A stretch of 35,326 bases of DNA from a virus (taxonomy: Duplodnaviria; Heunggongvirae; Uroviricota; Caudoviricetes): the IMG/VR virus record IMGVR_UViG_2778261588_000004, positions 1 through 35,326 of that record; one strand, given 5' to 3'. Below are positions 6,620 through 35,326 of the stretch, one piece after another. The stretch's first letter is position 1, and each line of letters opens with the position of its first letter. The notes under the pieces are model-generated. The model did not search any database, had not been told where the DNA came from, and saw only the letters and a program-made list of their open reading frames with translations. A program made the translations under genes and the position numbers.

Positions 6620-7645
6620 TTACGCCAGTTGTACGGACACGAACGCATCAGGATCAGCCAGCAGCATCAGCGGTGCTGACTGAATCATGGTGAACTCACG
6701 CGCCGGATCGCCGGTGGTCACCCAGTTTTTCGGGTAGCGGGCAGAGGCGTTAATACCTTCGCGCTGTGCGTCCGCATCCTGAATGCAGCCATAGGTGCGC
6801 AGACCGCGTGCCTGAGTGTTCCCCAGCACCATCGTGTTGTCCGGCAGGAAGTTCTTTTTGACGTCGTTTTCCACGTACTGTCCGGAATACACGACGATCG
6901 CCGTATCGCCATACATCCCCTTATAGGACACCGCTTCGCCCAGGTCTTTTACCGCTGTCTCCAGCTCGGAATTAGAGCCGCGACGGGTATCCAGCTTCTC
7001 CTTGACGGCTTTGAAGGAACGGAACAGCGCCCAGCCTTTCGGATCAAACACGATGATATTCACCACGCCGCTGGCGTTCAGCGCATAGGCTTCGATATCG
7101 TCGGTCGGGTCATACGTGGACTTGTCACGCTTGCTCCACTCCGTACCACCGGACTGTGTGATGTTGTTCGCCGCACTGCGGCCCATATCCACCTCAACCG
7201 GATCGAAGGCTTCACCGGTCATGGTGTATTTGCCCTTAAGCACAGCAGAAACTGCCTGCATCTCTTCGACCTGAGCAATGGCCAGCTCTTCGTCTCGCAT
7301 GTTCTGCATGATGATGCGACGGCGGCGGTAAGCCGGGTCCGCCAGATTCTGCGGATCTTCATCCGGCAGGCGACGCAGGGTCATCTGCGGATTCACCTCA
7401 TGCTTGGGTTTGACATATCCCGGCGTAAATTCAGAGGTGGAGCCGCCACGGGAACGGATAACCTCACCGGAAACAATCGGCGAAACGTACAGCGCCATGT
7501 TTACCAGTCCCGGAATTTGTGAGAGATAGACTTTCTCCGTGGTGAAGGGATAGCTCTCACGGAAAAAGAGACGCAGAAACAGCGGATCAAACTTAAATTT
7601 CTGCTCATTTGCCGCCAGCAGCTGGGCGGTTGTGTACATCGACAT
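6620..7645 (-). CDS. E: Major capsid protein E
   Basis: Lambda E-like sequence from MSMYTTAQLLAANEQKFKFDPLF... (internal Met at 7645) to ...FVSVQLA. Confidence 0.92.
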   Translation of the reverse strand: MSMYTTAQLLAANEQKFKFDPLFLRLFFRESYPFTTEKVYLSQIPGLVNMALYVSPIVSGEVIRSRGGSTSEFTPGYVKPKHEVNPQMTLRRLPDEDPQNLADPAYRRRRIIMQNMRDEELAIAQVEEMQAVSAVLKGKYTMTGEAFDPVEVDMGRSAANNITQSGGTEWSKRDKSTYDPTDDIEAYALNASGVVNIIVFDPKGWALFRSFKAVKEKLDTRRGSNSELETAVKDLGEAVSYKGMYGDTAIVVYSGQYVENDVKKNFLPDNTMVLGNTQARGLRTYGCIQDADAQREGINASARYPKNWVTTGDPAREFTMIQSAPLMLLADPDAFVSVQLA

Positions 7646-34565: not shown

Positions 34566-34865
34566 GTGCAGCCGGTTTTGATGGAGAAAATTATGAACAC
34601 CTTGTTTTTACTGATGGCTGAATTCAATACCCCAAACATTGAGCTGTCAGCTGTATGCCAAAAGTATTTCGGTATGAGCCCTAACACAGCAGAAGCGAAA
34701 GCAAATGCATGCCAGTTGCCGATCCCGACTTATCGTGTTGGTACATCACAGAAAGCAAAGCGCTGCATCAACATTCAGGATCTTGCTGAATATATAGATA
34801 AACGGCGTGAAGAAGGCAGAATTGAATGGGAGAGGGTAAGAACAAATAGGAAAATAAATAACTAA
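34566..34865 (+). CDS. Small DNA-binding protein, PrtN/excisionase-like (tentative)
   Basis: 99-aa ORF (true start may be an internal Met); last gene of the early-left operon, where excisionase-type genes sit in lambdoid phages. Confidence 0.4.
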   Translation: MQPVLMEKIMNTLFLLMAEFNTPNIELSAVCQKYFGMSPNTAEAKANACQLPIPTYRVGTSQKAKRCINIQDLAEYIDKRREEGRIEWERVRTNRKINN

Positions 34866-34871
34866 TCTCAC

Positions 34872-34899
34872 AAAAAACCCGCTTCGGCGGGTTAGTTTT
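34872..34899. terminator. Bidirectional intrinsic terminator between convergent genes
   Basis: Hairpin AACCCGC-TTCG-GCGGGTT (34876..34893) flanked by AAAAAA (34872..34877) on one side and T-rich TAGTTTTC on the other. Confidence 0.65.
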
Positions 34900-35326
34900 C
34901 ATCTTTATAATTCTGGGCAATTCGCGCCAGATAGCTCATCACATCATGTTTTCTTGCTTTTTCATGTGCATCGGGATACATAATAGCAATGAGTGAATAT
35001 TTATTCTCATAAAGCTCACCTTGGACATACACAAGACAAGCATCATTATCAGGATCACCTTTCTTGCAGACCCTATCCGGTTGTGGAAGTTTCTCGGGAA
35101 ACTTGTTTGGCGGTAGACAAAGATGGATATGCATCAACCCAGCCCGAAAAGCACCATAAGGCTGAGTATACGCAACGTCCCTACCGAAATAATGCGGAAG
35201 CTCACCGGTTGCTTTGTATCTCTTGAAATCATCAATGATAGAAGACTCTAGCTCCGGGAATTTGAGAAAAACTTCATCAAAAAATTCAGCTCTAGTTTCT
35301 GGATTAATAGAGACTTCTAGATGCAT
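34892..35326 (-). CDS. YafO-family toxin-like protein; start at window edge
   Basis: Shares YafO motifs (GELPHYFGRDVAYTQPY; CLVYVQGELYENKYSLIAIMYPDAHEKARKH); ATG is the last codon in the window so upstream context is unseen. Confidence 0.6.
   Translation of the reverse strand: MHLEVSINPETRAEFFDEVFLKFPELESSIIDDFKRYKATGELPHYFGRDVAYTQPYGAFRAGLMHIHLCLPPNKFPEKLPQPDRVCKKGDPDNDACLVYVQGELYENKYSLIAIMYPDAHEKARKHDVMSYLARIAQNYKDEN

Follow-up and report, generated by a model that had tools for sequence, protein, structure and literature searches.

The stretch of DNA analysed here (the window, 35,326 nucleotides of a caudovirus genome, IMG/VR record IMGVR_UViG_2778261588_000004) stops on the start codon of a gene for a YafO-like toxin, and the question that it raises is with what, if anything, this toxin is paired. 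The initial annotation had assigned the last open reading frame to the YafO family, and this holds: the product is assigned to PF13957 (YafO_toxin) of Pfam with an E value of 1.9e-21 and 76.5 bits (cut-off 25) over profile positions 1-100 of 101, is 36% identical to YafO of E. coli K-12 over 117 residues (E 2e-19), and has the motifs FGRD, HIHL, R85, LVY.QG and P..H..AR in common with it. The frame is complete: the window closes with its ATG (35326..35324), and its TAA occupies 34892..34894. Position 34872, from which the initial annotation counts this feature, is terminator, and the coding sequence ends at 34892. Against the NCBIfam equivalog PRK09885 (K-12 YafO) the toxin stays below the cut-off (75.8 vs 153 bits), and it is thus a member of the YafO family, not a K-12 ortholog. 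It falls in a separate YafO clade of proteins of 144-146 aa, across which 27 positions are invariant, and it also matches phrog_1651 (function not annotated) at E 1.8e-47.

The AF2 model of the toxin is a confident one (pLDDT 94.9), and its best fold neighbours in the PDB are toxins of the RelE superfamily, namely HigB2, YafQ, YoeB, RelE and HigB1, the fold matches themselves being weak (probability 0.94 for HigB2, best E 0.015, TM 0.42-0.56 over the top PDB neighbours). These neighbours agree with the placement of YafO in the RelE/BECR superfamily (PMC2814082; PMC11980606). A sequence search of the PDB with the toxin profile gave no meaningful match and no YafO structure. Among the defence models of PADLOC-DB 2.0 the toxin had no match, and the partner protein described below matched at chance level only (E 0.017). 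The pI of the toxin is 5.7, on the acidic side, and that of the E. coli partner is near 6; the usual toxin-antitoxin pair consists of a basic toxin and an acidic antitoxin.

What lies past the window edge can be read in E. coli, since a 767-base stretch is present at 99-100% identity in about 50 complete genomes of this species (49/5426) as well as in the phages PhiR40_1 and PhiR55_1. A partner gene had been anticipated just past the edge, and a co-oriented gene, orf179, was indeed found there after a gap of 16 bp (Table 1). The YafN-type antitoxin that this gene had been expected to encode was not: inspection of the sequence beyond 35326 yielded a 179-aa protein without similarity to YafN (E 1.7). 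The attP/dusA junction starts ~130 bp past the partner gene, at the point where homology to sister phages returns, and beyond it come a displaced 5′ fragment of the host gene dusA and then yjbM, zur, dinF and lexA. The integrase gene stands at the opposite end of the prophage (PhiR40_1 40960..42057); in the phage form, seen in mEp460 and SKA5, int lies directly across attP. This arrangement fits the dusA-targeting integrase family that has been described (PMC4482086). With xis adjacent on one side, attP/dusA close by on the other and int across attP, the module does adjoin the integration functions, as the initial annotation had surmised. Beside int of SKA5 (L123 4891..5013) there is a short 'tRNA-dihydrouridine' ORF, which by analogy would be a surrogate dusA 5′ end restoring the host gene upon integration (cf. 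PMC4482086).

Table 1. The toxin cassette, its neighbours, and the cargo types found in the same slot (positions beyond 35326 are window-equivalent)
Feature	Position	Strand	Remarks
PrtN-family excisionase (xis) gene	34593..34865	+	closes the early-left operon; transcribed towards the toxin gene
Cargo module, in-window part	34867..35326	.	whole module ~1.15 kb, to about 35326+690 (L002 7455)
Bidirectional intrinsic terminator	34876..34893	.	common to the cassette (-) and the early-left operon (+); overlaps the toxin stop codon
YafO-family toxin gene	34892..35326	-	complete ORF, 144 aa plus stop; distal member of the two-gene cassette
Partner gene orf179	35343..35882	-	179 aa; 16 bp upstream of the toxin gene in identical E. 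coli prophages
Promoter-like site TTGACC-17-TAGACT	35936..35964		~50 bp upstream of orf179
Slot cargo 1: YafO cassette			this window, PhiR40_1, PhiR55_1
Slot cargo 2: PanA(DUF4065)/PanT			PhiR47_1, phiSTEC1575-Stx2k, 1720a-02
Slot cargo 3: two small genes, gp23-gp24			mEp460
Slot cargo 4: three small genes			SKA5

Many IMG/VR provirus records stop exactly at the start codon of the YafO-like gene (L038-L040, L042, L045, L050, L056, L057, L061 and L062), as the window does at 35326, and others stop 556 bp further, at the start codon of the partner gene. The window edge thus looks like a provirus boundary call, and a call that splits the operon at the toxin start codon makes the toxin appear orphaned. 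The prophage of strain CFSAN004176 (L002 1..4700) is degraded, the tail-tip gene and yfdQ being truncated by an IS600 insertion and ead/Ea22 being partial; the YafO cassette is still intact there despite this decay.

As to expression, the sequence GAGG precedes orf179 as a ribosome-binding site, and the site before the toxin gene is weak. A search for operators near the promoter-like site returned short palindromes only, none of them convincing, a scan of the leader for a LexA-like box (within 1 mismatch) found none, and Rfam gave chance-level matches only on the cassette and its leader. A perfect tandem TCTATTCATA x2 is present just upstream of the promoter-like -35 hexamer, and a small palindrome AATAGCTAAGGCTATT in the 5′ leader of the cassette (L002 sites 7431..7450 and 7340..7375); both are possible operator or regulatory sites. 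In lysogens the displaced dusA 5′ fragment, 35 codons long, has the same orientation as orf179 and is found 200 bp upstream of it (L002 7323..7630; window-equivalent about 35882..36189). No terminator-like sites were found between this fragment and the partner gene, so that the host dusA promoter could read into the cassette, in the integrated state only.

PGAP calls the product of orf179 (WP_001067896) 'hypothetical', and the phage depositors entered it as 'YafM antitoxin'; the latter label, carried by the PhiR40_1 gene, is supported by none of our searches. The protein belongs to phrog_8416 (function not annotated). With E values up to 10 allowed, its best match in Pfam is DUF5076 (E 0.12), and no RHH, HTH, AbrB, Phd/YefM or RelB domain was detected; a Pfam search with ten distant homologs gave nothing. 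The AF2 model of a homolog 75% identical to the partner (pLDDT 78) consists of a hydrophobic N-terminal helix (residues 6-27), a linker (residues 29-37, pLDDT below 50) and a five-helix bundle, and Foldseek found no match to the partner model at E <= 0.001 in either the PDB or BFVD. The family is small, with 22 clusters only when 1.84 billion representative proteins were searched with its profile, and a literature search found no study of it. The representative of the 90%-identity cluster of the partner (P0044) differs from the E. coli protein by an 11-residue stretch (LSTLLLLRNSS against FEYSPSVEEFS), a difference suggestive of a local double frameshift within a short Logan contig.

At the loci of this clade that were examined, the two genes of the cassette were not found apart. 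In 21/21 GTDB genome loci, from Pantoea, Phytobacter, Enterobacter, Photorhabdus, Xenorhabdus, Rouxiella, Orbaceae, Pseudomonas, Halopseudomonas, Halomonas and one Phycisphaerae MAG, a member of the partner family (179-205 aa, same strand) lies directly upstream of the gene of the toxin clade, and the same is true of all IMG/VR loci with enough upstream DNA (55/55; gaps of 4-36 bp). The distinct upstream ORFs all belong to one HMM family (52/52), and a search started from the partner side led to the same pair in a Serratia prophage. The pairing is kept in HK639 (gp17/gp18), in the P. aeruginosa phage R656 (gp093/gp092) and in a Klebsiella phage-plasmid whose toxin is just 31% identical. Pairwise identities of toxins and partners are correlated (Pearson 0.94), with means of 59% and 29%, respectively, the partner diverging about twice as fast. 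Small, adjacent and in the same orientation, the two genes stay together throughout, as do those of toxin-antitoxin pairs, and such tight, absolute pairing across very divergent cassettes argues for direct functional coupling. Genes of the K-12 type (131-134 aa) were preceded by Phd/YefM proteins of 95-97 aa wherever examined, and the YafO family thus splits into two clades with different partners, Phd/YefM in one and phrog_8416 in the other.

The explanation that we favour, with a probability of roughly 0.6, is a toxin-antitoxin-like prophage cargo module in which a YafO-family toxin is combined with a non-canonical partner that replaces YafN. The cassette would comprise, in this order, a promoter of its own, the 179-aa partner gene, the 16-bp gap, the YafO-like gene and the terminator that it has in common with xis. 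By homology to K-12 YafO, the toxin would be a RelE-superfamily (BECR-fold) endoribonuclease whose cleavage of mRNA arrests translation. The phrog_8416 protein is most likely the cognate neutralising or controlling protein, given the strict co-occurrence, the antitoxin-then-toxin order, the strong ribosome-binding site of the partner against the weak one of the toxin, and the faster divergence of the partner. Judging from its context, the module probably serves abortive infection or prophage maintenance; a role in stabilisation or defence is plausible because sister phages carry PanA/PanT in the same cargo slot.

A canonical YafN-YafO type II module, with a small RelB/Phd-type antitoxin past the window, is what the family of the toxin and the Phd/YefM pairing of the K-12-type clade would lead one to expect, but it is hardly conceivable here: in the genomes identical to the window no gene other than orf179 separates the toxin from the attachment site, the 179-aa product has neither a Phd/YefM or RelB match nor similarity to YafN, and the 16-bp gap and the 200-bp leader have no room for a small ORF and contain no known RNA. 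One could also suppose that the toxin is an orphan or a decaying remnant, functionless and passively carried at the prophage end. The cassette is rare in E. coli, as the genome counts given above indicate, and YafO appears as 'toxin alone' in work on P. aeruginosa prophages (PMC10449497). However, these 'toxin alone' genes are members of the same clade, with an overlooked partner upstream, the pair is intact at all loci, and the partner N-terminal codons differ mostly synonymously between close relatives; the full-length ORF, the invariant clade positions and the confident model likewise speak against decay, which makes a remnant very unlikely.

More weight has to be given to the N-terminus of the partner. 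Over 37 distinct N-termini the sequence diverges and a physico-chemical pattern is kept, which in most partners runs from a K/R n-region through 14-25 uncharged residues to a small-x-small motif, with D/E after it. Read heuristically, most of these N-termini look like Sec signals, and the chances that the partner is exported seem, from this pattern, somewhat better than even, which renders its cytoplasmic location uncertain. The region is translated, since codons 1-33 differ mostly synonymously among close relatives (14 synonymous against 4 amino-acid-changing differences between E. coli and Pantoea, 9 against 2 between E. coli and Enterobacter). An internal start giving a cytoplasmic isoform was considered and rejected, M22 and M51 being without a well-placed ribosome-binding site and M51 not being conserved; a lipoprotein signal does not fit as there is no lipobox around C13, nor does a Tat signal as there is no consistent twin-arginine motif. 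Export would place the partner in the periplasm, away from the cytoplasmic toxin, and an exported protein does not easily fit the picture of a classical antitoxin acting in the cytoplasm. The partner may then be an envelope protein, truly exported or anchored in the membrane, that does not act directly as an antitoxin, the two genes forming an envelope-linked exclusion or abortive-infection pair with a nuclease that is otherwise restrained or conditionally active, or simply being co-selected, independent cargo genes. This would account for the signal-like pattern and its persistence, for the isolated helix and low-confidence linker of the AF2 model, for the lack of a conserved internal start, and for the lack of any antitoxin-like domain in the Pfam and structure searches. 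It would leave unexplained why the pairing is absolute, with gaps of 4-36 bp, across very divergent cassettes. Moreover, the partner homolog of the Klebsiella phage-plasmid, pJN226_0104 (E 1e-8), is without any hydrophobic N-terminus, yet precedes a YafO homolog, and HK639 gp17 has a weaker, less signal-like N-terminus than the window partner, its hydrophobic run being broken by QQ; these two distant members make the signal-like start less general, and, judging from them, the conserved helical domain probably works in the compartment of the toxin. We hold an envelope protein of this kind to be doubtful, if by no means far-fetched. It could also be, although we think it rather unlikely, that the partner is a Sec pre-protein that neutralises the toxin solely while it is cytoplasmic, export and not proteolysis draining the antitoxin pool. 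With such a design the toxin would fire when partner synthesis stops or when secretion-chaperone traffic is disturbed, for instance by an infecting phage.

To return to the favoured reading, that of a toxin-antitoxin-like cargo module, on the side of the toxin the cassette faces the early-left operon, whose last genes are one for an Rv2179c-like 3′-5′ exonuclease, a DUF551 gene and xis. For the xis product the matches are to Pfam PF11112 (E 4.4e-24) and to phrog_1300 'excisionase' (E 2.5e-40), and PGAP places the start of the gene at L002 6034, which is window 34593. The proposal that the toxin gene and the final early-left gene converge on one bidirectional terminator was borne out: a GC-rich stem-loop with a 7-bp stem (RNA fold of -11.6 kcal/mol, z -2.4) has terminator-like scores on either strand and extends into the toxin stop codon, and the convergent layout is correct because the hairpin sits 10 bases past the xis stop on the + strand (..34865). 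DNA homology to mEp460 and PhiR47_1 ends at about L002 6284-6308 (window about 34867) and returns at L002 7456. The slot from the xis terminator to attP(dusA) houses four cargo types (Table 1), all read from attP towards xis; differing cargo is held between conserved flanks, which is what characterises a prophage cargo (moron) or defence hot spot.

Outside this slot the cassette occurs in quite different surroundings: within the baseplate cluster of a myovirus in Photorhabdus, between the tail fibre and lysis genes of a P2-like prophage in Gilliamella, between the tail tube and tape measure genes and adjoining ParDE in Yersinia, and between the tape measure and minor tail genes in HK639. When the xis, exonuclease and DUF551 products of the window and the integrase of PhiR40_1 were compared by tblastn with the 21 genome loci, the same backbone was found in Phytobacter only, and the cassette thus moves independently of the backbone. 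The insertion pattern is that of a mobile accessory (moron) cassette, a kind of placement known for prophage toxin-antitoxin and defence genes. In the Yersinia prophage (L033/L034 4328..5176) a ParD-ParE pair and an extra ParD-like gene lie immediately upstream of the orf186/YafO-like cassette, which is a case of a second toxin-antitoxin cargo stacked at one hot spot.

Among known systems, the nearest by toxin is YafN-YafO of K-12 (dinB-yafN-yafO-yafP operon), which according to PMC2814082 (citing Zhang et al. 2009) is of type II and has as its toxin an mRNA interferase dependent on translation. Both have a toxin of PF13957 with the FGRD, HIHL and LVY.QG motifs, a partner-then-toxin order and a proximal promoter. 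Unlike the 97-aa Phd/YefM protein YafN, however, the partner here has 179 aa, is all-helical with a signal-like N-terminus and belongs to no Pfam family; the genes overlap in K-12 whereas they are 16 bp apart here; the present cassette lies outside any dinB or LexA context, has no LexA box and so is not SOS-linked in the manner of K-12; and it is prophage cargo, whereas the K-12 locus is core chromosomal. By position, the nearest is PanA (DUF4065, Panacea)/PanT of PhiR47_1, phiSTEC1575-Stx2k and 1720a-02, which has the identical slot, orientation and lambdoid backbone and is likewise a two-gene partner-then-toxin cassette of similar size. PanA is a known antitoxin domain. The proteins of the two cassettes are unrelated, and PanT differs from the YafO-like toxin in that its C-terminal region is hydrophobic and that it is no homolog of RNases. 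HK639 gp17-gp18 and gp093-gp092 of YMC11/02/R656 consist of the same two families in the same order, again as prophage cargo; their partners match the partner HMM at E 3e-23 and 4e-59, respectively, and the pairs are annotated as a hypothetical protein plus a YafO family toxin. They differ from the window cassette in location, the HK639 copy being inside the tail gene cluster and the R656 copy near a CI-like repressor gene, and a literature search found no experimental study of either pair. Finally, the HigBA-SecB toxin-antitoxin-chaperone (TAC) systems (summarised in PMC11980606) also have a RelE-superfamily toxin, and control that is tied to the world of secretion chaperones. The likeness is one of idea only: there is no chaperone gene here, no homology was found, and the hydrophobic element is N-terminal and signal-like, in contrast to the C-terminal chaperone-addiction segment of TAC systems.

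The toxin by itself is ordinary, as RefSeq already names it as YafO family. In previous work on a Salmonella prophage, ydaS was taken as the companion of a yafO-like gene (PMC9836087), and a toxin-antitoxin survey of Photorhabdus names YafO only as a search category (PMC13617665). Absent from the annotation and literature searched are three points: that this YafO clade, including the Pseudomonas 'toxin alone' cases, always comes with a second protein family; that the partner usually starts like a secretion signal; and that the xis-attP(dusA) junction is a slot for toxin-antitoxin-like cassettes. On the practical side, IMG/VR provirus boundary calls often split this operon at the toxin start codon, an artefact that mimics an orphan toxin. 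If the partner does neutralise the toxin, it would represent a new antitoxin family, and if it is exported, a new control logic would be at work. An antitoxin drained by export, should that be true, would be a toxin-antitoxin design without earlier description, in which the antitoxin is made labile by secretion.
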